Both the position numbers and the translations under genes were made by a program. DNA of 64,000 nucleotides, taken from positions 23,620-87,619 of the forward strand of contig JALNLN010000001.1 of the NCBI GenBank assembly GCA_023267855.1, in the 5' to 3' direction. Below, one piece after another: positions 28,599 through 49,186 of the stretch. Source of the stretch: Candidatus Geocrenenecus dongiae. Its GTDB lineage: Archaea; Thermoproteota; Nitrososphaeria_A; Caldarchaeales; Wolframiiraptoraceae. The notes under the pieces were generated by a model, which saw only the letters and a list, made by a program, of their open reading frames with translations, did not search any database and had not been told where the DNA came from. Within the stretch, counting starts at the first letter, position 1; each line of letters begins with the position of its first letter.

Positions 28599-28627
28599 CG
28601 TCTTACAAACTTTTATAGATAGTCTCT

Positions 28628-28816
28628 TTAAGTGATGAGCGCTATGAGACTGAAGATTGCGATAAACCCTAGTAGAAATATTGTGATAATGTTTAGTAAG
28701 GGATAGACCCATTCGATAGTTGAGACTAGATAGAGAAAGTAGACAGATAGACAGAAAACAATACCACACAGTATCTTGAGAATAATATTTACGAAACTCT
28801 GAACTCTAGCACCCAT
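28628..28816 (-). CDS. Small hypothetical membrane protein (2 predicted TM helices)
   Basis: It is a 62-aa hydrophobic ORF tail-to-tail with trxB. The only support is ORF length and hydrophobicity. Confidence 0.25.
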   Translation of the reverse strand: MGARVQSFVNIILKILCGIVFCLSVYFLYLVSTIEWVYPLLNIITIFLLGFIAIFSLIALIT

Positions 28817-28907
28817 CTATATCAACCAAAAAGAAAAGAAAACCACAACCTATTAAACCCAAGCACCACATTTCCTAAAATTTTAAGAAAAAGGTTTAAT
28901 TATAACC

Positions 28908-29030
28908 ATGAACAAAAATATCATCAAGCTCCAGAGGCAGAGAATTATGGATAAAAATACCAAGACATTAAAGAAAGCAACAACATTCTTTTACAGCTTC
29001 TGGAGCTATAGGTATTTTACCCTAGCCTAA
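28908..29030 (+). CDS. Candidate leader peptide (40 aa) with an aromatic-rich C-terminus, upstream of the lysC-asd-aro operon
   Basis: The ATG at 28908 lies about 22-31 nt downstream of an AT-rich TATA-like element (TAAAATTTTA 28877-28886). It translates to MNKNIIKLQRQRIMDKNTKTLKKATTFFYSFWSYRYFTLA, with 8 of the last 14 codons being Phe/Tyr/Trp. Its stop codon lies inside the loop of a GC-rich hairpin. Confidence 0.35.
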   Translation: MNKNIIKLQRQRIMDKNTKTLKKATTFFYSFWSYRYFTLA

Positions 29031-29064
29031 AGGGCTAGGGTGTAAGTCTTTTATATTTTTCTGT
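29019..29064 (+). promoter_or_regulatory. GC-rich hairpin (9-bp stem, ACCCTAGCC/GGCTAGGGT) followed by a T-rich tract, a terminator/attenuator-like element in the lysC-aro leader
   Basis: The stem arms are 29019-29027 and 29033-29041 with loop UAAAG. A T-rich run TCTTTTATATTTTTCTGTT spans 29046-29064. A 12-bp long-range helix AGCUCCAGAGGC (28927-28938) : GCUUCUGGAGCU (28996-29007) lies just upstream. Confidence 0.4.
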
Positions 29065-29080
29065 TGGGGTGTGTTTTTGC

Positions 29081-30307
29081 ATGTCTGGGGTTATAGTTGT
29101 AAAGTTTGGAGGATCTGTTTTGAAAGATCTATCAGCTATTGAGGAAGCTGCTTCGTGGGTAAAGAAGTTGCTTGCTGGCGGCTATAAAATAGTTGTTGTT
29201 GTTTCTGCGATGAAGGGGGTTACTGATGAACTTGTAAATACAGCTAAGATGTTGGCTGGGAATCCTGATCCAGAGTTGATGGATGAAATTCTCTCGATGG
29301 GTGAGAGGATAAGTGCGAGACTCTTTACACTAGCTTTAAGAGAACATGGTGTAAACGCTATGTTTATAGATCCAGCAGACGATTACTGGCCTATAATAAC
29401 AGACTCCAACCATCTAGATGCAGAACCATTATACATTGAAACAAAGAAGAATGTAAAAGAAAAGATAGTTCCATTATTGGAGAGAGGAGTAGTTCCAGTG
29501 GTATGTGGATTCATAGGTGTTACGGTTGATAGGAAGATAACTACGCTTGGAAGAGGGGGAAGCGATACGACCGCCGTCTTGATAGCTAACTGTCTAGAAG
29601 CGGAAGAAGTAGTACTTGTTAAAGATGTTCCAGGAGTTTTCTCAGCAGATCCAGACATAGTTGGAGATTCAGCTAAGATACTGAGTGAACTAGATTTCAG
29701 AGAAGCTCAGGCATTAGTGAAAGGTGGGGCGAAAATAATCCATACGAAAGCTTTGAGATACCTCGATAGAAAGCTCAAACTTAGAATTGCAAGCATGGAA
29801 GAACTTGCAGCCAATGGTGGAACAGTAATTAGAGGATACGATCCAGAGATCGAGGTAAAAACCTCTCCAGTTAGAATAACCATGGTCACGATAATCAGAG
29901 AAGATCTTGACAGTACGGATGTTCTCGAAAAGATCATGAAGCTACTAAAAAAGAGAGATGTAAAAGTACTTGCAGTAACTTGTGAAGAGAAAGCATTGAT
30001 ACTATACTTAGAAGAGAGGGAGGGGATAATTGTAGATGTACATTCATGTTTGGTGAATGAGAGGTTAGGGAAAGCGGTAAGCTTCTACCAAGACCTAGCG
30101 ATGATCACTGTCTCAGGTAGGATGCTTGAGACAAGTCCAGGTATAATACATAAGATTACGAAACCCTTAGCGGAAAACAACATAAACCTCTACGGGCTGA
30201 TAACGATCTCATCGTCTATTAAATTAATTGTATCTAGCTCGGTATTAGAGAAGGCTAGAGAACTACTTGTAAAAATGTTGAGAGAAGAGGTGGAGGTGGT
30301 TACATGA
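29081..30307 (+). CDS. lysC: Aspartate kinase
   Basis: It has VVKFGGSVL and the amino-acid kinase fold, and the C-terminal regulatory region is consistent with ACT domains. A GGGTG Shine-Dalgarno-like sequence lies 10 nt upstream of the ATG at 29081. The track start at 29069 is less likely. Confidence 0.85.
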   Translation: MSGVIVVKFGGSVLKDLSAIEEAASWVKKLLAGGYKIVVVVSAMKGVTDELVNTAKMLAGNPDPELMDEILSMGERISARLFTLALREHGVNAMFIDPADDYWPIITDSNHLDAEPLYIETKKNVKEKIVPLLERGVVPVVCGFIGVTVDRKITTLGRGGSDTTAVLIANCLEAEEVVLVKDVPGVFSADPDIVGDSAKILSELDFREAQALVKGGAKIIHTKALRYLDRKLKLRIASMEELAANGGTVIRGYDPEIEVKTSPVRITMVTIIREDLDSTDVLEKIMKLLKKRDVKVLAVTCEEKALILYLEEREGIIVDVHSCLVNERLGKAVSFYQDLAMITVSGRMLETSPGIIHKITKPLAENNINLYGLITISSSIKLIVSSSVLEKARELLVKMLREEVEVVT

Positions 30308-31356
30308 AGAATTTGAAGATAGCTCTACTTGGAGCAACTGGGATGGTTGGAGTAGAATACATAGAATTTCTACATAGACATCCATGGTTTAAGATATCAA
30401 ATCTATGTGGTAAGAAGAGTGTAGGAAAGAAGTATGGAGAAGCAGTTAAAGCTTTAAAGAATATTCCTAAGGAAGTAGCAGAGATAGAGGTTGTTGAACC
30501 TGATCCGAAGAAGATTGATGCGGATCTCGTGCTCTCAGCTCTACCTTCGGAAGCTGCGAGAGAAATAGAGAAACAATTTGTAGAAAACGGCTACCCAGTT
30601 GTAAGCGAGGCTTCAGCACATAGAATGGAGCCTGACGTACCTTTAATCATACCAGAAGTTAATCCAGATCACCTAGAACTCATAAATATGCAGAAGAAGA
30701 AAAGAAGAGATGGAGGCTTCATAGTAACTACTCCAAACTGTACAGCCGTAGGTCTAATAATGTCACTAAAACCACTACTAGACAATTTCGGTATAAGGAA
30801 GGTGGTAGTCGCAACATACCAAGCAATAACAGGCGCAGGATTTCCTGGAGTCCCATCCTACTCTATCTTAGGAAACATCATACCATATATCAAGAATGAG
30901 GAAGAAAAAGTTTCACAGGAAACTAAGAAGATTTTAGGTAGACTTGAAAATGGAAGGATAAAGTATGCAGAATTCCCGGTTGAAGCATCTTGCGCAAGAG
31001 TCCCAACCATAGATGGACATCTAGAAGCGGTTTATATTGAAACGGAGAAAACTTTTGATCTCGATAGTGTGGTAGAGGGTTTTAGAAACTTTAAAGGTGA
31101 ACCGCAGACTCTAGGTTTACCTTCAGCTCCATCTGAACCTATAATCTTAACAGATCTCGAAGATAGACCTCAACCTAGACTAGATGTTATGGCCGGGTCT
31201 GTGCCTGGTATGAGTATAGTTATTGGAAGAATTAGACGTGGAGAATCTGAGAACTCTCTCAAATACTTCGTCTTAAGTCATAATAGAATTAGAGGTGCAG
31301 CAGGTATAGCTGTACTAACAGCAGAACTCATCTATAAGAAAGGATACATAGGGTGA
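30304..31356 (+). CDS. asd: Aspartate-semialdehyde dehydrogenase
   Basis: It has KIALLGATGMVG, and the catalytic Cys region NCTAVGL is present. It overlaps lysC with ATGA. Confidence 0.85.
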   Translation: MKNLKIALLGATGMVGVEYIEFLHRHPWFKISNLCGKKSVGKKYGEAVKALKNIPKEVAEIEVVEPDPKKIDADLVLSALPSEAAREIEKQFVENGYPVVSEASAHRMEPDVPLIIPEVNPDHLELINMQKKKRRDGGFIVTTPNCTAVGLIMSLKPLLDNFGIRKVVVATYQAITGAGFPGVPSYSILGNIIPYIKNEEEKVSQETKKILGRLENGRIKYAEFPVEASCARVPTIDGHLEAVYIETEKTFDLDSVVEGFRNFKGEPQTLGLPSAPSEPIILTDLEDRPQPRLDVMAGSVPGMSIVIGRIRRGESENSLKYFVLSHNRIRGAAGIAVLTAELIYKKGYIG

Positions 31357-31363
31357 TGTAAAG

Positions 31364-32155
31364 ATGGTTAAAGGTAAACAGGTTAGGATTTCCAGAATAA
31401 CTTGCATGGGGAAGATGGTGTGCGTACCTATGGATCATGGTGTAACTGTAGGTCCAATAAAAGGTCTAGATAATATCTATGAAACAATAAGGAAAGTGGA
31501 GAGAGGTGGAGCAACGGCAATACTAACACATAAAGGTATATTGAAGAATCTGGAATCAGTTCCAAGTCTAGGCTTAATCATACACTTATCTGCATCAACA
31601 AATCTCTCACCCAATCCTAACTGGAAAGTCAAGATAGGCACTCTCAAAGAAGCTATAAGACTTGGAGCAGACGCTGTCTCAGTACACATCAATATAGGTA
31701 ATAAGGATGAGCAGGACATGCTAGTAAAACTTGGGCTACTTGCAGATGAATGTGATGAATGGGGCATACCATTGATAGCTATGATGTATCCTCGTGGAGA
31801 GAACATTAAAGATCCAAACGATCCATACACAATAGCTCACATCGCTAGAATAGCCGCAGAACTCGGAGCAGATATAGTGAAAGTGCCTATGCCTTCATCT
31901 AACCCAGAAGATATAAAGATCATAACAAAGACCTGTCCAATACCGGTAGTTGCAGCAGGAGGACCGAAGATGGAGGATGATAAACAAGTACTACAGCTGG
32001 CTGAGGCTGTTGTTAGAGCTGGAGGAGCAGGAATAACTTTTGGTAGAAATGTCTTCCAACATGAAAGCCCAGAACTAATGGTGAAAGCATTGAGAGCAGT
32101 GGTTATAGAGAGGTTTTCGATAGAGAGAGCTTTAGAGATACTTAAAGGTGGATGA
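31364..32155 (+). CDS. aroA': 2-amino-3,7-dideoxy-D-threo-hept-6-ulosonate synthase (AroA'), a class I aldolase-like enzyme of the DhnA/archaeal FBA family
   Basis: The archaeal class I aldolase fold (MVCVPMDHG Schiff-base region) is present. The 263 aa length fits, and it sits immediately upstream of 3-dehydroquinate synthase II, which distinguishes it from glycolytic FBA. Confidence 0.7.
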   Translation: MVKGKQVRISRITCMGKMVCVPMDHGVTVGPIKGLDNIYETIRKVERGGATAILTHKGILKNLESVPSLGLIIHLSASTNLSPNPNWKVKIGTLKEAIRLGADAVSVHINIGNKDEQDMLVKLGLLADECDEWGIPLIAMMYPRGENIKDPNDPYTIAHIARIAAELGADIVKVPMPSSNPEDIKIITKTCPIPVVAAGGPKMEDDKQVLQLAEAVVRAGGAGITFGRNVFQHESPELMVKALRAVVIERFSIERALEILKGG

Positions 32156-33188
32156 GTTGGACAAGCAGGTGATAATCTACCCTGAAGAGGTTAGTAGAGA
32201 GTTAGTTCAAACAGCAGTCACGTACGGTATCAGAAACATCTATGCAAAGAACCAACTCCCAGAAGAACTAAGTATAGAACAACTCAACCTATACATAGAA
32301 GAACCAACTGGGCAGATAAAGATAGCTAGTAGAGAAGGTGTAGAAGAATCTATAAAGATAATTGTTAAGGAGCCTGAAGATATTGAGAAGATACTTTCGG
32401 CTGTCGAGAAAGGTTACAGAAAGATATTTGTTGATACGTATAGCTGGAAAATAATTCCTTTAGAAAATATTGTCGCTGAGCTTCAGAAAATGGATGTTAA
32501 ACTTTATGCTTACGGTTCAAATGTAGAAGAAGTTGAATCACTTTTAAATGTTTTAGAGAAAGGTGTAGATGGAGTAGTAGTAAAGATCAAGAAGACAGAC
32601 GAGATAGGTAGGCTCGCCGAGATCTTCAAACAGATAAGATTTCTAGATATTCTTGATGGAGAGGTTACTGAAGTAGAGAATATCGGTGTAGGAGACAGAG
32701 CATGTGTCGATACTGTCTCAATACTAGATCCAGGTGAAGGAATGCTTGTAGGCAATTTTAGTAGATTCTTCTTCCTAATCCACAATGAAGGAACTGGATC
32801 ACCATTTACTTCTCCTAGACCTTTTAGAGTAAATGCTGGGGCCGTACACTGTTACGTAATGATGGCCGATGGTACAACCAAGTATCTCTCAGAACTATCA
32901 GCTGGGATGCGTGTACTCGTAACTACTCTCAGAGGTAGAGCGAGACCAGTAACTATAGGTAGAGTTAAGATAGAGAGGAGACCGTTAAAGATTGTTAGAG
33001 CAAGAGTTGGAGAAGCTGAAGGCTCTGTAATACTACAAGATGCTGAAACAATACGTCTTGTATCTAAAGATGGCGAACAAATATCAGTAACAGAATTGAA
33101 TCCAGGAGAGAAGGTAAAAGTACATGTATCAGAACAGAAAGCAAGACACTTTGGGAAAGCTGTAGAAGAATTCATAATAGAACGTTGA
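32148..33188 (+). CDS. aroB': 3-dehydroquinate synthase II (archaeal-type, AroB')
   Basis: Strong family pattern: GDRACVDT.S.L..GEGMLVG..S...FL.H.E.......RPFRVNAG.VH.Y....DGTTKYLSEL.AG..VL......R...IGRVKIERRPL......A.G......ILQ.AETIRLV...GE.ISV..L.PG.KV.V. Confidence 0.85.
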   Translation: MDELDKQVIIYPEEVSRELVQTAVTYGIRNIYAKNQLPEELSIEQLNLYIEEPTGQIKIASREGVEESIKIIVKEPEDIEKILSAVEKGYRKIFVDTYSWKIIPLENIVAELQKMDVKLYAYGSNVEEVESLLNVLEKGVDGVVVKIKKTDEIGRLAEIFKQIRFLDILDGEVTEVENIGVGDRACVDTVSILDPGEGMLVGNFSRFFFLIHNEGTGSPFTSPRPFRVNAGAVHCYVMMADGTTKYLSELSAGMRVLVTTLRGRARPVTIGRVKIERRPLKIVRARVGEAEGSVILQDAETIRLVSKDGEQISVTELNPGEKVKVHVSEQKARHFGKAVEEFIIER

Positions 33189-33191
33189 GAA

Positions 33192-33872
33192 ATGAAGACG
33201 AAGATATGCGTAAGCGTTAAAGCTAGAACAGTAGAAGAGTTGGAAGATAAAGCATCTAAAGCTTTTAAACTTGGAGGAGATTTAGTGGAAGTTAGATTAG
33301 ACTATCTCGAAGACATATCTATACCGAAAATCTCAAATTTGTTTTCCAAGTATGCTGGTAAGATTATCGCAACTCTTAGACCAAGATGGGAAGGAGGAGT
33401 ATATGAAGGTGATGAAGAATCACGTCTCTCAATCCTCAAATCTATAGCTAGACTTAACCCTAAATTCATCGATATAGAGTATAATGTGGCTGAGAATCTG
33501 GATCTATCTTACTCAAATATAGGGAGAATAATTTCATGGCATAATTTTAACGAAACACCGTCTCTTGAAATTCTCTCCACGATTGTAGATAAATGTTTAG
33601 AGTTAGGCGATATAGTAAAGATAGTAACTATGGCGAAATCTCTGAAAGATTCTCTAAACGTTCTAAAATTGTATAATCTGTATCCTAGAGAGAAGCTCGT
33701 AGCTTTCAATATTGGAGAATATGGATTATTTTCAAGAATATTATCTGCTTCAGCAGGCTCACCTATAATCTACACATGTCTACCAGGAGAGGCTCTGGCA
33801 CCTGGACAACCTGTAGTTAGCGATGTGAAAGAAATACTTGAAGTACTAGGTGGTGGAGAAGTATGGAGATAA
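33192..33872 (+). CDS. aroD: 3-dehydroquinate dehydratase, type I
   Basis: Its size (226 aa), operon position and TIM-barrel type I DHQase-like N-terminus (KICVSVKARTVEEL) support the call. Confidence 0.7.
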   Translation: MKTKICVSVKARTVEELEDKASKAFKLGGDLVEVRLDYLEDISIPKISNLFSKYAGKIIATLRPRWEGGVYEGDEESRLSILKSIARLNPKFIDIEYNVAENLDLSYSNIGRIISWHNFNETPSLEILSTIVDKCLELGDIVKIVTMAKSLKDSLNVLKLYNLYPREKLVAFNIGEYGLFSRILSASAGSPIIYTCLPGEALAPGQPVVSDVKEILEVLGGGEVWR

Positions 33873-34726
33873 ATTCTAAGACTCGTCTATGTTGTCTGAT
33901 AGGTCATCCAGTTAAACACTCTATCTCACCTAACATACATAACACACTCTTCCAGAAACTAAACCTAAACTATGTTTACTTAGCATTCGACATAGATCCT
34001 AAAGATCTACGAAGTACTGTAAGAGGATTTAGAGCAATGAACGTTCTAGGATTCAATGTGACAATCCCCCACAAGATCAATGTTATCAAGTATCTAGACA
34101 AAATAGATTCTTCAGCAAAAGAATCAGGCTCAGTAAACACTGTAGTGAATAGAGGAGGAGAGCTGGTAGGATACAATACGGATATAGATGGGATTATCAA
34201 TAGTTTGAAAGACGTCGAGTACGATAATTGTGGAAGAGCATTAGTAATAGGTGCAGGTGGAGTAGCAAGAGCAGCTATAGTTGCTTTAAGAAATCTTGGG
34301 TTAGAAGATATAATAGTTTGTAATAGAAGATTGTGGAGAGCGGCTGCACTTGTTAGAAAATTTAGGAATGATCACTTGAAGATGAAGGCTATAAGTATAT
34401 CTGAAGCATCAAGATACTCTAGAAACGCATCAATAATAATAAACGCTACACCTATAGGAATGTGGCCGAATGTTGATGAAACACCTTTAAACTCACATGA
34501 AATATCTAGAAACGCTGTCGTCTTAGACCTAGTTTACAATCCTCTGAAAACTAAGTTGATAATTGAAGCAGAGAAAGCAGGTGCTAAAACCATTACGGGG
34601 CTTAAGCCTCTGATCGAACAAGCAGCAAAAGCTTTCATGCTCTGGACATCCATAGATCCTCCTAGAGAATTAATGTGGAGTGTTGCTGAAAAAACTCTCA
34701 AGGAGATTTTTAGAAATGAAGGTTGA
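33863..34726 (+). CDS. aroE: Shikimate dehydrogenase
   Basis: It has CCLIGHPVKHSISPNIHN (substrate-binding motif) and an NADP Rossmann fold (VIGAGGVARAA). Confidence 0.85.
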   Translation: MEINSKTRLCCLIGHPVKHSISPNIHNTLFQKLNLNYVYLAFDIDPKDLRSTVRGFRAMNVLGFNVTIPHKINVIKYLDKIDSSAKESGSVNTVVNRGGELVGYNTDIDGIINSLKDVEYDNCGRALVIGAGGVARAAIVALRNLGLEDIIVCNRRLWRAAALVRKFRNDHLKMKAISISEASRYSRNASIIINATPIGMWPNVDETPLNSHEISRNAVVLDLVYNPLKTKLIIEAEKAGAKTITGLKPLIEQAAKAFMLWTSIDPPRELMWSVAEKTLKEIFRNEG

Positions 34727-35588
34727 AGCAGTAGTACATGGGGCAGTGTCTATAGTAAACGCTATACCTCTAGGAATAGGATCTGCTCTAGGAGTAGACT
34801 TAACCACAAAAGCCATCGTAGAAGTAGAAGAATCAAAGATAGAAACAATCAACATAGACATATACGTAGAAGGTGAAGAAGATGTTGATAAAAGTTTAGC
34901 TGAGAATACTATAAGAGAATTGTTGAGGATAGCTAAGGGAACTTACAGAGTTGATGTTAAGATTTACTCAAATATACCTATCGCAAGAGGGTTGAAGAGT
35001 TCGAGTGCAGCTGCAGACGCAATCGTCTTAGCCGCTTCTAAAGCTCTAGATCTAGAGCTCTCTACAGACCAATTAGTAAACATGGCTGTAGATATATCAA
35101 TAAAGTCTGGGGTAACAGTAACGGGAGCTTACGATGATGCTTTAACATGTATGATAGGTGGGGTCAATATAACGGACAATCTGAAGAGGAAGATACTTGC
35201 GCACTGGGATCTGGATGAAGATATCTCAATAATAATAATGATTCCTCCAGAGAAGTTCTACACGAAAGAAGTAGATGTTGGAGCACTTAGATCTTTCTCA
35301 AACCTCTCTATGAGAGCTGTAGAACAAGCGTTAAACGGGAACATATGGGATGCAATGATAATAAACGGCCTAGTAGTTTCATCAGCATTAAACATAGACT
35401 ATACACCTGTTCTAAGAGCTTTAAAGAAGAAAGCTATCGCTGCTGGGATAAGTGGTAAGGGACCGTCCATAGTTGCAGTTACATATCCAGAGCATGAAGA
35501 AGAAGTTAAGAAAGAATTAGAGAGATTCGGTAGAGTCATCAGGGTTAAGCCTAACAATCGTGAAGCATATGTAAGAATATTAGATTAG
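34716..35588 (+). CDS. aroK: Shikimate kinase, archaeal GHMP-kinase type
   Basis: It has GHMP motif PIARGLKSSSAAADA. The likely start is the Met at 34716 (MKVEAVVHGAVSIVNAIPLG), 11 nt into the aroE 3' end. The track ORF begins at 34680. Confidence 0.8.
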   Translation: MKVEAVVHGAVSIVNAIPLGIGSALGVDLTTKAIVEVEESKIETINIDIYVEGEEDVDKSLAENTIRELLRIAKGTYRVDVKIYSNIPIARGLKSSSAAADAIVLAASKALDLELSTDQLVNMAVDISIKSGVTVTGAYDDALTCMIGGVNITDNLKRKILAHWDLDEDISIIIMIPPEKFYTKEVDVGALRSFSNLSMRAVEQALNGNIWDAMIINGLVVSSALNIDYTPVLRALKKKAIAAGISGKGPSIVAVTYPEHEEEVKKELERFGRVIRVKPNNREAYVRILD

Positions 35589-35615: not shown

Positions 35616-36485
35616 TTACGATATGCTTAAGAATCTTCTAAAGATTTTATCTAAACCTACGTCGTACCCGTCCATCAACTTCTTCAGTATACTGAAAAAC
35701 TTCAATCCAACCTTCACTAGAATCTCGTCAATCTTTTCTGGATCTTCTTCAACAGTTATGTGTTCTCCTGGAGAGTATTCACTTACAACGTAGAGTATGC
35801 AGCCGACCAGAATCTTTATCTTCTTTCCCCTAGAAGCTTCATAAAAATCTCTTAGCAGACAGTATGTAGAGAACTCCATCTCGCTCGAGATAACACCCAT
35901 CTTTCTATAAGATTCAAGCCTAGCTTCTAGTAGTTTGCATCTAGGGGAGAATTCAGGTCTTTCCTTAAAGTATAGATCATCTTTAGTGTGTACTGGCCCC
36001 AGCCACAGATTCTTATTTAAACTGTATCCAAGTTCTTCTGCTGCGAGTACTAGTATTGGTAGAAGTTCAAAACTTGAGACAGCTGGATATTCTAATCCTA
36101 CTATAGATTCTGTTGAACCCTCATCTCTAACACATGATGTAGGTATATGTAGATGTCCAGCATGAACATGTTCTTGGAGGGATCCTGATGTACCTATCCT
36201 CAAAATTACCATGAAGTCTTCTTTAACAGATTCTATAATTTCTGGAAGTATTACCATACAGCTAGATGGACCCATACCAGTAGATACAGCAGAAATCTTC
36301 AATCCATCATATAATCCTTCTACTATAACATGACCTCTACGACCTACATACACCTTAGGGTTTAAAATAAATTCTGAAACTTTCTTGATTCTTCCAGCTG
36401 AACCTCCAGTCAAGATATAATTACTTAGCTCGCTGATTTCTAAATGATTCATCTTTCCAGAAGAGGTAGAAAACGTAATCTTCAT
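35616..36485 (-). CDS. PNP/UDP family 1 nucleoside phosphorylase (purine nucleoside/MTA/uridine phosphorylase-like)
   Basis: It has STGMGPSS (phosphate-binding) and RIGTSGSL motifs, plus a C-terminal extension of about 60 aa. Confidence 0.65.
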   Translation of the reverse strand: MKITFSTSSGKMNHLEISELSNYILTGGSAGRIKKVSEFILNPKVYVGRRGHVIVEGLYDGLKISAVSTGMGPSSCMVILPEIIESVKEDFMVILRIGTSGSLQEHVHAGHLHIPTSCVRDEGSTESIVGLEYPAVSSFELLPILVLAAEELGYSLNKNLWLGPVHTKDDLYFKERPEFSPRCKLLEARLESYRKMGVISSEMEFSTYCLLRDFYEASRGKKIKILVGCILYVVSEYSPGEHITVEEDPEKIDEILVKVGLKFFSILKKLMDGYDVGLDKIFRRFLSIS

Positions 36486-36520
36486 AGAGTAGAAGATGAT
36501 TTTGATATAGATTAAGATTT

Positions 36521-36790
36521 CTATTCTTTCTTCTCTGTTTCTAGCTCTTTCTCCAGTTCTTTCTCTATTTCTTCAATAGGTTTTGGAGGAGGAGTGGTTG
36601 CGAGTGTGTATCCAATCCATGCGATTAATGCAAGTAAACCAGTTACAGCAACAAAAGCTGTTAGCTTAAGTATTATTAGATCCCAGTTTGTGAAGAATAG
36701 AAGCCAGCTATACACAACTATCCCTACAAGCGAAACCAACAATATTGTAAAACCTAAGACTTGGTCTCTGCCCATTTTAACCACATCCAA
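36521..36790 (-). CDS. Small membrane protein with a K/E-rich C-terminus (hypothetical)
   Basis: It has two predicted TM helices followed by PPPKPIEEIEKELEKELETEKKE. It sits between two PNP paralogs on the same strand. Confidence 0.35.
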   Translation of the reverse strand: MDVVKMGRDQVLGFTILLVSLVGIVVYSWLLFFTNWDLIILKLTAFVAVTGLLALIAWIGYTLATTPPPKPIEEIEKELEKELETEKKE

Positions 36791-36847
36791 AATTAAGTAT
36801 AGAGTTAAATTTATCTCTTTTTTGTTTGCAATGTATACGAAGTTTTC

Positions 36848-37672
36848 CTATTTCTTAGTAAGAAGACTTGGATAAAAGTATTTTTTACCTTTCTTTTCTT
36901 TTAATTCTCTCCATTCTTCAAGAATCTTTACTGCTTCAATAGCTGTTTTTATTGCATCTTCTTCTCCCTTCACTTCAAAGGTGTCTTTAACACGGTTTGC
37001 AAATACAACACATACTGATCCTGCCTTCAAATTATATATCGCTGCTAGTGTAAAGATTGTAGAAGACTCCATATCGAAATTAAGAACTCTCATTTTCTGG
37101 AGATCTTCTAAGAGTTTTTCAGGATAACTCCACATGTATCCACCGTATCCAGGTCTACTCTGACCTAGATAGAAGCTGTCTGTGGTAGCTGTAACACCCA
37201 CATGGTATTTGAGGTTTAATGATTCAGCTGCTTCAATTAGAGCTAGAGTTACTTCGTAATCCGCGTATGCAGGATACCCGTCTATAACGTAGCTTTTACT
37301 AGTACCTTCAAGTCTTACAGCTGCAACCGAGATTACGAGATCTCCTACATCTATTTCAGGTTGTATGGCTCCTGTAGATCCTACTCTGATGAATGTTCTA
37401 GCACCGGCTCTCGCAAGTTCTTCTATTGCTATAGCTGTCGATGGTGACCCTATACCAGTTGAACACGCACATAAAGGTATACCTGAAGTCTTACCAACCC
37501 ATACTCTAAACTCTCGATGATAAGATAATTCTCTTCCCTCCTCTAAGAATCTAGCTATCTTTAAAACTCTATCAGGATCTCCTGGAATCAATGCGTATTC
37601 AGGTATCTCTCCAGGCTTAACTTTAACATGGTAAAACTCTCCTTCAATTGTTCTAGGCTCGGTAGCTTTCAT
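36848..37672 (-). CDS. PNP/UDP family 1 nucleoside phosphorylase (DeoD/Udp/MTAP-like)
   Basis: It has CSTGIGSPSTAIAIEEL, RVGSTGAI and ME motifs (FDMES), characteristic of hexameric PNP/UDP enzymes. Confidence 0.75.
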   Translation of the reverse strand: MKATEPRTIEGEFYHVKVKPGEIPEYALIPGDPDRVLKIARFLEEGRELSYHREFRVWVGKTSGIPLCACSTGIGSPSTAIAIEELARAGARTFIRVGSTGAIQPEIDVGDLVISVAAVRLEGTSKSYVIDGYPAYADYEVTLALIEAAESLNLKYHVGVTATTDSFYLGQSRPGYGGYMWSYPEKLLEDLQKMRVLNFDMESSTIFTLAAIYNLKAGSVCVVFANRVKDTFEVKGEEDAIKTAIEAVKILEEWRELKEKKGKKYFYPSLLTKK

Positions 37673-37754: not shown

Positions 37755-39044
37755 ATGGTGAGAGTTTACGTTGAGCCTTCAAGATTTAGTGGTTTTGTAG
37801 AAGCTGTACCTAGTAAGAGCTATACTCATAGAGTTTACTCTACTTCCCTCCTCGTTAATGGTAGGAGTGTAGCTTTGAACCCACTATTCTCAAGTGATAC
37901 TGAAGCTACATTAAATGCTTGTAGAATGTTTGGAGCAGAAACAATTCTGAGTAAGGGAAAGGTGGAGTTGTCATGTAGGAGGTTGAAGCTTCCAGATGAT
38001 GTAGTGAATGCTCAGAATTCTGGAACAACCCTCCGATTCTTTACAGCACTGTCTTCTCTCGCACCTCCTGGCTACGTCGTGTTAACTGGAGATGAAAGTC
38101 TGAGAAAAAGACCTATGCAGCCACTCATAGATGCGTTGAAAATGCTTGGAGTAGAATGTTGGTCAACACGTGGAAATGGTTTAGCACCGATAGTAGTCAA
38201 GTCAGGTGGGCTTAGAGGTGGAGAAGTAGAGATAAGAGGAGACGTGTCTTCTCAATTCATTTCTGCTCTCTTGATATCTTCTGTGAAAGCTGAGAAAGAT
38301 GTAGATATAATAGTTAGAGAAGAACAAGTCTCGAAACAATACATAGATGCAACTATTAAAGTCTTAGAGAATTTTGGTTTTAAGATCTATAGGGAAGGCT
38401 ACAGCTACTATCATGTAAGAGGGGGGCAGGAGGGACGACCCTCAGTATTCAGGGTGCCTGGAGATTTTAGTTCAGCTTCATTTCTAATAGCTGGAGCATA
38501 CCTGACTGGTGGAGAGGTGGAGATAAGCAATCTTGACACAACTTTACCTCAATCTGATTCCAAGATAATAGATATTGCTAAAGATTTCGGATGCCGTGTA
38601 GAGTTTAGAAGTGGGGACACTATTTACGTGAAGTGTTCAGGCATTGGGGAGGGAGGAGAATATGTTCTTACAGATTCTCCAGACCTACTGCCAGTAGTAG
38701 CAGTTATGGCCGTAAAAACTGTTGGAGAAACGATAATCAGAGGTGTAGAACATGCTAAATTTAAGGAAAGTGATAGAATAAATTCTACGGCTATAGAGTT
38801 GAAGAAACTTGGAGTAGATGTTGAAGTTCTTAAAGATGGTTTAAAGATTAAAGGTAGAGAAGAAGTTGAAGGTGGGGTTGAGCTTTCATCTCATAGCGAT
38901 CATAGACTCTTCATGGCGTTCACAGTTCTAGCTTCAGCAACGAAGAAAGGATGTATAGTAGATGGATTAGAATGGGTTAAAGTTTCATACCCAGAATTCA
39001 TAAACCACCTCAAGAAGCTAAATGTATCTATTAGAGAAATCTAG
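37755..39044 (+). CDS. aroA: 3-phosphoshikimate 1-carboxyvinyltransferase (EPSP synthase)
   Basis: PSKSYTHRV matches the (L)PGSKS.T.R motif, and its 429 aa shows the two-domain EPSPS pattern. Confidence 0.85.
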   Translation: MVRVYVEPSRFSGFVEAVPSKSYTHRVYSTSLLVNGRSVALNPLFSSDTEATLNACRMFGAETILSKGKVELSCRRLKLPDDVVNAQNSGTTLRFFTALSSLAPPGYVVLTGDESLRKRPMQPLIDALKMLGVECWSTRGNGLAPIVVKSGGLRGGEVEIRGDVSSQFISALLISSVKAEKDVDIIVREEQVSKQYIDATIKVLENFGFKIYREGYSYYHVRGGQEGRPSVFRVPGDFSSASFLIAGAYLTGGEVEISNLDTTLPQSDSKIIDIAKDFGCRVEFRSGDTIYVKCSGIGEGGEYVLTDSPDLLPVVAVMAVKTVGETIIRGVEHAKFKESDRINSTAIELKKLGVDVEVLKDGLKIKGREEVEGGVELSSHSDHRLFMAFTVLASATKKGCIVDGLEWVKVSYPEFINHLKKLNVSIREI

Positions 39045-39080
39045 ATAAACTTCTCGTAAACATTTATTTGTCAGAGAGCT

Positions 39081-40190
39081 TTGGCTGGAAACATTCTGGG
39101 GAAATCATTCGTCGTAGTCAGTTTTGGAGAAAGCCATGGTAAATGTATAGGAACAGTTATTGATGGATGTCCAGCTGGATTGAAGATATCTGAAGAAGAT
39201 GTTCAAAGAGAACTTGATTTAAGAAAACCTAGATCTCTACAGATACATACTCAGAGAACTGAAGAAGATAAGGTCGAGATACTTTCAGGAATCTTTAATG
39301 GATATACTACGGGTGCACCGATATGTATGATTGTCTGGAATCGTGATGTAAGGAGCATGGATTATGAAGTAGTGCGTTATCTTCCAAGACCAAGCCATGC
39401 AGACTATTTTGCATACATCAAGTACGGGGGATTCAACGATTATAGAGGTGGTGGACGCTTCTCTGGGAGAATAACTGCGGGATTCGTTATGGCTGGAGCT
39501 GTAGCTAAGAAGTTGCTGAGAGAAGTTCTTAACATAGAAGTGGTTGCATATTCTCTAGAGATAGGTGGTGTTAGAGCAGAGAACTTTACCTTAGAAGATG
39601 CAGTGAAGTACAGGTATGAGAATGATGTTAGAGCACCTGACAAGAGTTCTGCGGAAAAGATGATGGAGAAGATTATTGAAGCGAGGTCAAGAGGTGACAG
39701 CGTTGGAGGTATTATTGAATGTGTGGTTACAGGTTTACCGATAGGCTTAGGAGAACCAGTCTTCGATTCACTAGACTCTGATCTAGCTAAAGCATTATTC
39801 TCTATACCGGCGGTTAAAGGTGTTGAGTTTGGAGCAGGATTTAAGATAGCTAGAATGCTGGGATCTCAAAGCAACGACCCATTCACTATAAGAGATAATA
39901 AAATAGTTGTTGAAAAGAATGATTCAGGTGGAATTGTAGGCGGGATCTCGACAAGCGCACCTCTAGTATTTAGGGTAGCTTTCAAGCCACCTGCATCTAT
40001 AAGCATACCGCAGAAGACTGTAGATATAAGAGAGATGAAGGAGAAGGAACTAGTGATAACTGGGAGACATGATCCATGTATCGTTCCCAGAGCTGTACCT
40101 GTAGTTGAAGCTGTTACAGCAATAGTGCTCGTAGACCACGCAATTAGATCTGGACTCATACCGCCAGTCTTGGAGAAACGAGATGTCTAG
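39081..40190 (+). CDS. aroC: Chorismate synthase
   Basis: The N-terminus has FGESHG and is followed by GRSSARETA-like regions (RPSHADY, GGGRFSGR). The start codon is uncertain and may be an upstream or near-cognate start. Confidence 0.85.
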   Translation: MAGNILGKSFVVVSFGESHGKCIGTVIDGCPAGLKISEEDVQRELDLRKPRSLQIHTQRTEEDKVEILSGIFNGYTTGAPICMIVWNRDVRSMDYEVVRYLPRPSHADYFAYIKYGGFNDYRGGGRFSGRITAGFVMAGAVAKKLLREVLNIEVVAYSLEIGGVRAENFTLEDAVKYRYENDVRAPDKSSAEKMMEKIIEARSRGDSVGGIIECVVTGLPIGLGEPVFDSLDSDLAKALFSIPAVKGVEFGAGFKIARMLGSQSNDPFTIRDNKIVVEKNDSGGIVGGISTSAPLVFRVAFKPPASISIPQKTVDIREMKEKELVITGRHDPCIVPRAVPVVEAVTAIVLVDHAIRSGLIPPVLEKRDV

Positions 40191-48852: not shown

Positions 48853-48983
48853 ATATCTATTACCATAAAATCTTCAAAGAGATTTTCTCAAAGATTCGAG
48901 AAAAATGGCCTAACACTGAAAATAGAAACATCTACAATCATTATACAATTTATTATAGAGAATAAGAGAAAATGTATTTAGTT

Positions 48984-49186
48984 TGGGGGCGGTGGGATTT
49001 GAACCCACGTTCTCCGGGTTTCCCCTACTAGAAGTAAAAGCTCCAGCACATCTTCATCCCCAATAAAGGGTCTAGATTGTTGAAATCTTGTAAGCGCTGG
49101 AGCCCGGCGCCGTAGACCTTCAGCCTTTTATCTTCCTGTTTGATCCCCCTCCCTACTCTTTATTTAGGAGTCTGGGCCACGCCCCC
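48984..49186 (-). tRNA. tRNA-Trp (anticodon CCA) interrupted by a 77-nt canonical intron and probably a second intron of about 50 nt in the D-loop
   Basis: The acceptor halves GGGGGCG (49186-49180) and CGCCCCC (48991-48985) are perfectly complementary, with discriminator A. The T-arm is GUGGG-UUCAAAU-CCCAC. The anticodon stem CCGGG/CCCGG (49107-49103 and 49018-49014) carries loop CUCCAG|A, with an intron (49020-49096) inserted after position 37. That intron contains GCUGGAG, complementary to the anticodon loop, as expected for a bulge-helix-bulge. About 50 extra nt lie between the D-stem halves. Confidence 0.6.

Follow-up and report, generated by a model that had tools for sequence, protein, structure and literature searches.

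Within the 64,000-nucleotide stretch of Candidatus Geocrenenecus dongiae DNA analysed here (referred to as the window, with positions counted from its first letter), the region preceding the aspartokinase gene lysC is probably the 5' leader of the lysC-asd-aro messenger RNA (mRNA) and, judging from its sequence, would act as a ribosome-read sensor of the supply of aromatic aminoacyl-tRNAs, the signal being, we infer, the dwell time of the ribosome on aromatic codons. We identified in this region a short upstream open reading frame (uORF) with its own Shine-Dalgarno (SD) sequence and two helices, named P1 and P2. A translated frame, a bias in composition without conservation of sequence, cognate genes and helices that a ribosome would open together form a leader-peptide signature. 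The comparison of related loci (labelled L001, L083 and so on) establishes, at the level of sequence, the uORF, its SD and frame, the aromatic bias, P1, P2, their spacing and the exclusive association with aro operons. The elements of the leader and the operon that follows it are:

28887-28902, + strand: putative leader promoter, an A-rich stretch resembling a transcription factor B recognition element (BRE) and the TATA box TTTAATTA (28895-28902); conserved in relatives.
28927-28938, + strand: 5' strand of P1, AGCUCCAGAGGC, holding the uORF SD GAGG (28934-28937), which precedes the start codon by 7-10 nt in 19/19 leaders; invariant in relatives.
28947-29030, + strand: conserved uORF, MDKNTKTLKKATTFFYSFWSYRYFTLA and stop, 27 codons, 8 of them aromatic (F14 to F24, 28986-29018); frame kept in relatives.
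28996-29007, + strand: 3' strand of P1, GCUUCUGGAGCU, codons S17 to Y21, inside the aromatic run; pairing conserved.
29013-29018, + strand: UAU UUU (Tyr-Phe), the last aromatic codons, adjoining P2; invariant in nucleotide sequence.
29019-29041, + strand: P2 hairpin with GC-rich arms of 9 base pairs (29019-29027 and 29033-29041) and the uORF stop TAA (29028-29030) in the loop; covariation.
29042-29065, + strand: G-poor spacer with T4 (29049-29052), T5 (29056-29060) and CTTTTATA (29048-29055); T runs not conserved.
29066-29071, + strand: lysC SD GGGGUG, 9 nt before the ATG at 29081; GGRGGTG kept in all leaders.
29081-35588, + strand: putatively controlled operon, lysC, asd, aroA' (2-amino-3,7-dideoxy-D-threo-hept-6-ulosonate (ADH) synthase, DeoC family), aroB' (3-dehydroquinate (DHQ) synthase II), aroD, aroE and a GHMP-type shikimate kinase gene; assigned by Pfam, with identical gene order in relatives.

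The gene identities behind the shikimate operon that the initial annotation placed directly downstream are borne out by Pfam, which recognizes aspartokinase, aspartate-semialdehyde (ASA) dehydrogenase, ADH synthase, DHQ synthase II, AroD, AroE and GHMP shikimate kinase among the window proteins. The lysC gene spans 29081-30307, and its ATG at 29081 agrees with the lengths of homologues (402-411 amino acids, aa).

The leader open reading frame

The frame from 28908 to 29030 that the initial annotation had pointed out is present: it translates to MNKNIIKLQRQRIMDKNTKTLKKATTFFYSFWSYRYFTLA followed by a stop, with aromatic residues at 8 of the 14 positions 26-39, and it has the highest aromatic score among the 492 small open reading frames (ORFs) of the window, whose long ORFs contain 7.8% Phe, Tyr and Trp. 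Its proposed start at 28908 had to be abandoned, as this ATG is ATA in L001 (92% identical), where a 1-nt deletion follows downstream, and lies upstream of the predicted transcription start site (TSS); the first 13 codons (28908-28946) are not conserved. The loss of this ATG in L001 had at first led us to read the region as a non-coding structured RNA with an artefactual ORF, a reading that was reversed because the internal ATG at 28947 opens a conserved frame. This frame is intact in L001 and in six further lineages at 60-68% LysC identity, and the uORF is conserved in 8 lineages found through LysC, two of which (L089 and L091) have unrelated upstream genes.

We scored 19 distinct leaders, taking as the uORF start the first ATG, GTG or TTG found 3-14 nt after the invariant GAGG. 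A start codon 6-10 nt after GAGG and in frame with the stop is present in 19/19 (L115 additionally has an out-of-frame TTG 3 nt after GAGG), and start and stop are separated by at least six different distances, each a multiple of three (ORF lengths 57-81 nt). In about 20 distinct leaders of Caldarchaeales the peptides have 24-32 aa with 8-11 Phe, Tyr or Trp residues, all of them in the C-terminal half. A basic N terminus is combined with a hydrophobic, aromatic C-terminal end; neither sequence nor length is conserved in the N-terminal half, and the C-terminal YF[AT]LA is invariant in Caldarchaeales. In L091/L107 and L113/L118, in which the nucleotide sequences differ and P1 is weak or absent, the aromatic run is still kept.

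The last aromatic codons, UAU UUU, remain unchanged even in GC-rich relatives that use UUC and UAC elsewhere. UAUUUU, together with the P2 hairpin, made up the DNA-level pattern of our metagenome search, so that the independent evidence for its invariance is that of the LysC-derived loci only. A -1 frameshift at UAUUUU and the hairpin was considered and rejected, as the X XXY YYZ heptamer is absent.

The helices P1 and P2

Both helices described in the initial annotation exist. The long-range helix between 28927-28938 and 28996-29007, P1, has 12 pairs, one of them G-U, and in 17 leaders 94% of its cells are paired, versus 31-52% for slid controls. The interior of P1 is variable, and we found in it no conserved core resembling a ligand pocket. 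The hairpin P2 has 9 perfect pairs, is paired to 100% in all leaders and has a 5' arm that codes for Thr-Leu-Ala. In the eight loci obtained independently of the pattern, it shows two compensatory pairs (G-C/A-U and A-U/G-C), one of which compensates for a synonymous change of the Leu codon; RNAalifold gives for P2 7 pairs, 2 compensatory and 0 broken. In Caldarchaeales the uORF stop, whether UAA, UAG or UGA, always lies in the P2 loop.

The view of the initial annotation that the hairpin exceeds chance was upheld, as none of 200 shuffles folds as well as the 206-nt stretch (z = -4.3) and the hairpin sequence is unique in the window, where 0 matches are expected. In predicted folding at 65-85 °C P1 and P2 alone remain, P2 being still folded at 85 °C. 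By eye, the 3' end of UAU UUU lies 11 nt past P1 in nearly all aligned leaders, a geometry that, from general knowledge, recalls bacterial leader pause hairpins.

No Rfam family matches the leader at the gathering threshold, and the best matches under relaxed thresholds (E >= 0.07) lie far under the gathering scores; one of them, to a leu/phe leader, was rejected as evidence, having 16.7 bits versus a gathering score of 70. A reading of the helices as an H/ACA or C/D box small RNA (sRNA) was rejected because a conserved ANA or C/D box is absent, and a pairing between the P1 5' strand and the P2 5' arm because the CUAG-type P2 variants (window, L084, L086) break it.

The putative leader promoter

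Upstream of the leader, GGTTTAATTA is invariant in 7 syntenic relatives, and in 19/19 leaders a BRE/TATA-like element has its end about 24 nt ahead of the P1 5' strand. The usual archaeal spacing from TATA box to TSS predicts a leader TSS at about 28925-28927. With a transcript starting at about 28926, the ATG at 28908 falls between the TATA box and the TSS.

Most first genes of transcription units in the window have no SD and carry a TATA-like box with its 5' edge 30-38 nt ahead of the start codon, so that they are apparently leaderless. Internal genes often have GGTG or GAGG; against this background a leadered, SD-bearing lysC is unusual.

Divergent from the leader promoter is a TATA-like box, GTTTAATAA, on the - strand at about 28851-28859. 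It belongs to a small gene (28628-28816, - strand) that was not called in the assembly of the window and lies in a 470-bp gap left as intergenic. Its product of 62 aa (MGARVQSFVNIILKILCGIVFCLSVYFLYLVSTIEWVYPLLNIITIFLLGFIAIFSLIALIT), apparently a two-helix membrane protein, has no Pfam match and is conserved in amino-acid sequence in L001, L083, L084, L086 and L087. On the + strand, 28629-28687 overlaps this gene and gives weak matches to C/D-box sRNAs (sR5, E = 0.07; sR41, E = 0.13; GUGAUGA ... CUGA), which are probably due to chance, since the boxes are absent from relatives at 65-68%.

The spacer and the lysC Shine-Dalgarno sequence

The T-rich tract and SD that the initial annotation noticed before lysC are there, with T runs at 29049-29052 and 29056-29060, GGGGTG at 29066-29071 and the ATG at 29081. 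The distance from P2 to the downstream SD is 22-28 nt in all leaders. Runs of at least four T were seen by eye in about half of the leaders, always at least 6 nt from the stem and never directly adjoining it, and the T-tract of the window is kept in its closest relatives only. The T5 at 29056-29060 meets the archaeal oligo-T criterion (at least 5 T on the coding strand), but this does not hold family-wide. The T-rich spacer may serve to end or pause transcription at oligo-T, to provide an internal TATA box from which a leaderless lysC mRNA would be made, or to do both.

In most folds of full leaders at 37 °C the unpaired probability of the lysC SD is 0.16-0.45. Pairing of the P1 5' strand with the ribosome-binding site (RBS) is marginal relative to shuffles, and no pairing of the P2 3' arm with the RBS was found in the Bathyarchaeia leaders.

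Distribution and association with aro operons

The initial annotation had proposed beforehand that the aromatic run and hairpin be sought in related genomes, and relatives do keep both upstream of shikimate-pathway operons. The pattern retrieved 31 metagenome loci, ten of which are chance matches without the leader architecture. Where the architecture is present and the flank sufficient, lysC or aroA' follows 50-160 nt downstream on the same strand (19/19 loci). A genome scan based on LysC alignments returned, with over-general peptide patterns, mostly bacteria, and its archaeal loci served as unbiased tests and controls; the Bathyarchaeia, lysC-asd-only and haloarchaeal loci were retrieved through LysC homology only. 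All hosts are uncultured organisms, and part of the leader set is ascertainment-biased by the search pattern. Altogether the leader was found in four operon layouts and two archaeal classes.

Nine of the loci with the architecture (L095, L096, L098, L102, L103, L111, L112, L117, L118, L121 and relatives) are devoid of lysC-asd. In these the leader is followed by an ORF of 32-44 codons with a lysC-like SD and start (M-[SPL]-G-V-[HN]-[SF]-[IL]...), which always runs into the aroA' start and ends a few codons past it. This ORF resembles a leftover 5' end of lysC that has been retained to couple translation. In the same loci, CCCCN just after P2 can pair with codons 2-4 of the ORF (N'GGGG), with one G-C/U-A swap seen by eye.

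In Bathyarchaeia (L004-L007) the operon is lysC-aroA'-aroB'-aroD-aroE-aroK-aroA-aroC. Each of these loci has a uORF of 24-29 codons that ends in a Tyr/Phe run and a stop (for example ...SFDYYFYYYHFP, ...FSFGYYFYYYFR and ...SFEYCFYYYY), a P1-like helix in which the sequence immediately before the uORF AUG pairs with the first codons of the aromatic run, and a long GC-closed hairpin that starts right after the stop codon and is followed by an SD and lysC. The helix, GGUUCGAAGC:GCUUCGAAC, encloses the uORF AUG, and the hairpin, GCCCAGAAC-N20-GUUCUGGGC, has an A5U5 stretch (a U-run) in its loop. The leader lies about 60-190 nt upstream of lysC (L004, L005, L006, L007 and L010); in L010, where the contig ends inside lysC, the aromatic-run uORF is similar. 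Bathyarchaeal and Caldarchaeales peptides are alike in composition, not in sequence, and the two leaders may be homologous or convergent.

Nothing comparable was found upstream of lysC in the lysC-asd-only loci (L008, L009) or in the haloarchaeal loci (L011, L013). Weaker and different leader candidates are present in L092/L093 and L003. In L092/L093 (2860-3000; 52% LysC identity) AGAGAGGCG and CGCCUCUCU form a pair, the latter located at the end of an ORF of 23 codons that starts with GTG and contains YRWYRY, and a subsequent pair, CUCUCCUCU / AGAGGGAGG, could sequester the lysC SD. In L129/L130 an open frame at 1610-1711, upstream of lysC-asd-aro, ends in ...LTYEASYFLNFAY and a stop, with 7-8 aromatic residues; after its AGAGG motif there are only ATT codons, with no ATG, GTG or TTG, and its stop overlaps the lysC SD (UAAGGAGG). 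It may be a leader with a non-canonical start, or nothing.

The host and the neighbouring genes

The aspartokinase of the window is 100% identical to a protein from a metagenome-assembled genome (MAG) labelled 'Nitrososphaerota archaeon', and its relatives are labelled Aigarchaeota or Caldarchaeales. The tRNAs have a G+C content of 63-70% in a genome of 37.5% G+C, so that the host is likely a thermophile. In a 537-bp gap ARAGORN calls an 80-nt tRNA-Thr(AGU) (48983-49062, - strand) that the Rfam tRNA model does not report at the gathering threshold; it may be a false positive, or else a tRNA that contains an intron or is atypical.

The genes of 5-enolpyruvylshikimate-3-phosphate (EPSP) synthase and chorismate synthase are at 37755-40190, past two convergent phosphorylase genes. 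This PNP_UDP_1 phosphorylase pair (35616-37672, - strand) separates the lysC...aroK unit from the aroA-aroC unit; in the group-2 and Bathyarchaeia operons aroA-aroC comes immediately after aroK.

Proposed mechanism

We hypothesize that transcription would start at about 28926 from the conserved TATA box and that GAGG, within the first nucleotides, would load a ribosome on the nascent RNA, leading to translation of the 27-codon uORF. Once the ribosome had cleared the aromatic codons, P1 would close and shut off further translation of the uORF; as P1 hides the uORF SD as soon as the aromatic codons are free, sensing would be confined to the nascent RNA. Whether the ribosome pauses on the aromatic codons or finishes the uORF would decide whether P1 or P2 folds, since UAU UUU adjoins P2 and the stop lies in the P2 loop, and this choice would set the level of transcription or translation into lysC.

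As to the output, we tentatively favour a co-transcriptional one of the attenuation type, at somewhat less than even chances, because P1 would confine uORF translation to nascent RNA and because, at the temperature at which the host probably grows, no helices but P1 and P2 are predicted to be stable. Candidates are a hairpin-dependent pause or a factor-dependent termination, which would be gated by the helix that hides the leader SD. The invariance of UAU UUU at synonymous sites points toward a co-transcriptional decision. An output at the level of the mRNA ranks below it and is somewhat unlikely; the fixed spacing between P2 and the SD and the lysC start kept as a coupling ORF point to translational coupling. 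The structures did not yield the direction of the regulatory response.

Several observations weigh against a ribosome-read sensor or its parts. The leader TSS, the translation of the uORF and the response to amino acids are predictions only, from sequence. No compensatory changes were found in P1 despite its conservation; their absence is expected, because both strands are otherwise constrained, the 5' strand by the uORF SD and the 3' strand by the Ser-Phe-Trp-Ser-Tyr codons. The invariance of YF[AT]LA and the hairpin is by construction in the pattern-derived loci, in which both were within the search pattern. We found no conserved structure mutually exclusive with P2, P1 and P2 not overlapping; pairing of the uORF SD strand with the spacer is no better than in shuffles (Caldarchaeales leaders), pairing of the spacer with the lysC SD is on average weaker than in shuffled controls, and pairing of the P2 3' arm with the lysC RBS is significant only in the L083/84/86/87 clade (z -1.6 to -4.6). 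A U-run after P2 is not conserved, being absent in L083, L084, L086, L087, L101 and L113/118. With the stop in the P2 loop, a ribosome that finishes the uORF melts P2 and one that stalls early lets P2 form, so that P2 as a plain terminator would terminate under starvation, the wrong sign for a biosynthetic operon. No recognisable leader was found in the asd-aro operon of Caldarchaeum sp. L126, and L129/L130 have only the aromatic-rich open frame, without a canonical start.

Alternative explanations

The initial annotation saw here the classical layout of a ribosome-mediated attenuator, in which P2 and the T-tract (29046-29064) would form a terminator and the long-range helix the alternative structure on stalling. 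Part of this layout stood, namely the aromatic leader ORF with its own SD and the conservation of both helices. A terminator scan does flag the hairpin-plus-T pattern, T5-T7 runs follow several operon ends of the window, P2 is under structural selection, and the restriction of uORF translation to nascent RNA by P1 fits a co-transcriptional decision. The terminator U-run is not conserved and no antiterminator was found: the U-run is missing from about half of the leaders (by eye), never adjoins the stem and, in Bathyarchaeia, lies inside the hairpin loop, and P1 is no alternative to P2, pairing instead the uORF's own SD with the aromatic codons. Archaeal oligo-T termination, moreover, is not known to require a hairpin, and we know of no established role in it for a hairpin upstream. 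Together with the regulatory sign that follows from the stop in the P2 loop, this makes a classical attenuator distinctly unlikely. Control of translation on the mRNA, with uORF translation coupled positively or negatively to initiation at the lysC RBS, is less so, and we regard it as rather unlikely. A finishing ribosome would open P2 and the adjacent weak helices, or reinitiate 50 nt downstream, and P1 would be a kinetic gate, slow decoding of the aromatic codons keeping the uORF SD exposed. Such coupling agrees with the fixed P2-to-SD distance (22-28 nt), with the lysC-less layout, which keeps the old lysC start as a short ORF reaching the aroA' start, with an SD-sequestering helix right after P2 in L091, L089 and group 2, and with a P2 3' arm complementary to the RBS in L083-L087. 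It is weakened by the poor pairing of spacer and SD noted above and by the masking of a ribosome footprint in the folds, which does not consistently raise the accessibility of the lysC SD and often lowers it. In addition, from 65 °C upward no structure is predicted past P2 and the host looks thermophilic, simple positive coupling would give 'replete = ON', and a closed P1 would block continuous sensing on the mature mRNA.

An internal promoter, compatible with the leader, was also weighed: the T-rich tract would serve chiefly as the TATA box of a second promoter, from which a leaderless lysC mRNA would be made, and the leader would possibly be a separate short RNA. CTTTTATA does match the TATA consensus of the genome and lies 33 nt before the lysC ATG, a distance typical of the leaderless genes in the window; the octamer recurs at 28610, and YCTATAT is retained in group-1 relatives. 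However, a conserved SD (GGRGGTG) separates motif and start codon in every leader and so speaks for a leadered lysC mRNA, the motif ends 14-21 nt before the start codon in L083-L087, too near for a TSS at the start, and it is absent from the group-2 and Bathyarchaeia leaders. We consider this promoter unlikely, and the intervening SD and the short spacing in relatives argue that CTTTTATA would not be the main one of lysC. A functional micropeptide as the product of the small ORF, for instance one associated with the membrane, would make the hairpins ordinary mRNA features and the aromatic content a matter of peptide function and not of regulation. Such a product is suggested by its basic N terminus, its hydrophobic aromatic C terminus and the invariant YF[AT]LA; however, its N-terminal half is unconserved, the invariant C-terminal residues lie in the P2 arm, where synonymous changes are compensated, the Bathyarchaeal peptides are similar in composition alone, the ORF is found only directly upstream of aro operons, and P1 hides its SD, so that we hold a micropeptide to be highly improbable. 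Least probable of all is a structured RNA that binds a protein or a metabolite, be it riboswitch-like or the product of an sRNA gene, and in which a pyrimidine-rich helix strand reads as aromatic codons by chance: the invariance of P1 and P2 at the nucleotide level, the putative promoter of its own and the folding score would suit it, but Rfam yielded no family at either the gathering or the relaxed thresholds, indels leave the frame, start codon and SD intact, and the aromatic run survives the loss of P1, whose variable interior has no pocket-like core.

Comparison with known systems

Leader-peptide attenuation is a textbook bacterial mechanism that relies on coupled transcription and translation, and archaea likewise couple the two processes. 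Known regulation of amino-acid genes in archaea is by DNA-binding proteins. The initial annotation regarded the mode as not established in archaea, and our full-text literature searches agree, as they returned, within the literature searched, no archaeal amino-acid operon controlled in this way, whether shown or predicted; a paper on a software tool does mention, in general terms, that uORFs act in archaea. It is conceivable, though at less than even chances, that leader-peptide sensing is a genuine and old regulatory mode of the TACK archaea (Thaumarchaeota, Aigarchaeota, Crenarchaeota and Korarchaeota), common to the aro operons of Caldarchaeales and Bathyarchaeia, which would use the coupling of transcription and translation but have an archaeal output unlike the bacterial terminator/antiterminator switch. 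In that case it would be the first documented attenuation in archaea. With a helix that sequesters the leader's own SD, a stop in the hairpin loop and no conserved U-run, the output step may be mechanistically new. The element, about 150 nt with two helices, one uORF and clear sequence signatures, is a concrete and testable candidate; it flags aspartokinase and ASA dehydrogenase as putatively co-regulated, by aromatic amino-acid supply, with a shikimate pathway of the ADH/6-deoxy-5-ketofructose 1-phosphate (DKFP) type, and its uORF could help to annotate aro operons in uncultured archaea.

The closest likeness in layout is to the E. coli pheL-pheA and trpL-trpEDCBA leaders, in which the biosynthetic operon is likewise directly preceded by a short ORF that has an SD of its own and is rich in end-product codons, and in which hairpins overlap the end of this ORF. 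The trp leader of E. coli also has its stop codon flanked by the two arms of its first hairpin, as the uORF stop is by those of P2. Unlike these, the present leader is found in an archaeal host and mixes all three aromatic amino acids, has neither a conserved hairpin-plus-U-run terminator nor an antiterminator, sequesters its own SD in the 5' helix, and encodes a longer peptide (24-32 aa) that begins with a hydrophilic spacer of at least about 10 codons. Compared with archaeal oligo-T terminators, the spacer of the window shares T4 and T5 runs but differs in that these are not conserved among the leaders.

Mixed aromatic residues and control of the common, pre-chorismate part of the pathway are also features of the Corynebacterium glutamicum aroR leader peptide (Phe-Tyr-Phe), which precedes the operon of aroF, encoding 3-deoxy-D-arabino-heptulosonate 7-phosphate (DAHP) synthase, acts by ribosome stalling and is reported to respond to Phe and not to Tyr (Neshat et al. 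2014, as summarised in PMC11802643). The aroR leader is a bacterial, terminator-based attenuator, with no similarity to the archaeal leader in sequence or structure. The ermC and cat leaders and the mycobacterial polycysteine uORFs (bioRxiv 10.1101/834739) resemble the present case in that a stalled uORF ribosome remodels the leader RNA with no need of an intrinsic terminator, and helices occluding an SD, as in translational attenuators, occur in some of the archaeal lineages; unlike in those systems, we found no conserved pair of SD sequestor and anti-sequestor here, and the likely thermophily disfavours weak helices. The archaeal leader thus appears to follow the same leader-peptide principle as the bacterial ones, but in another domain of life and with another RNA architecture.

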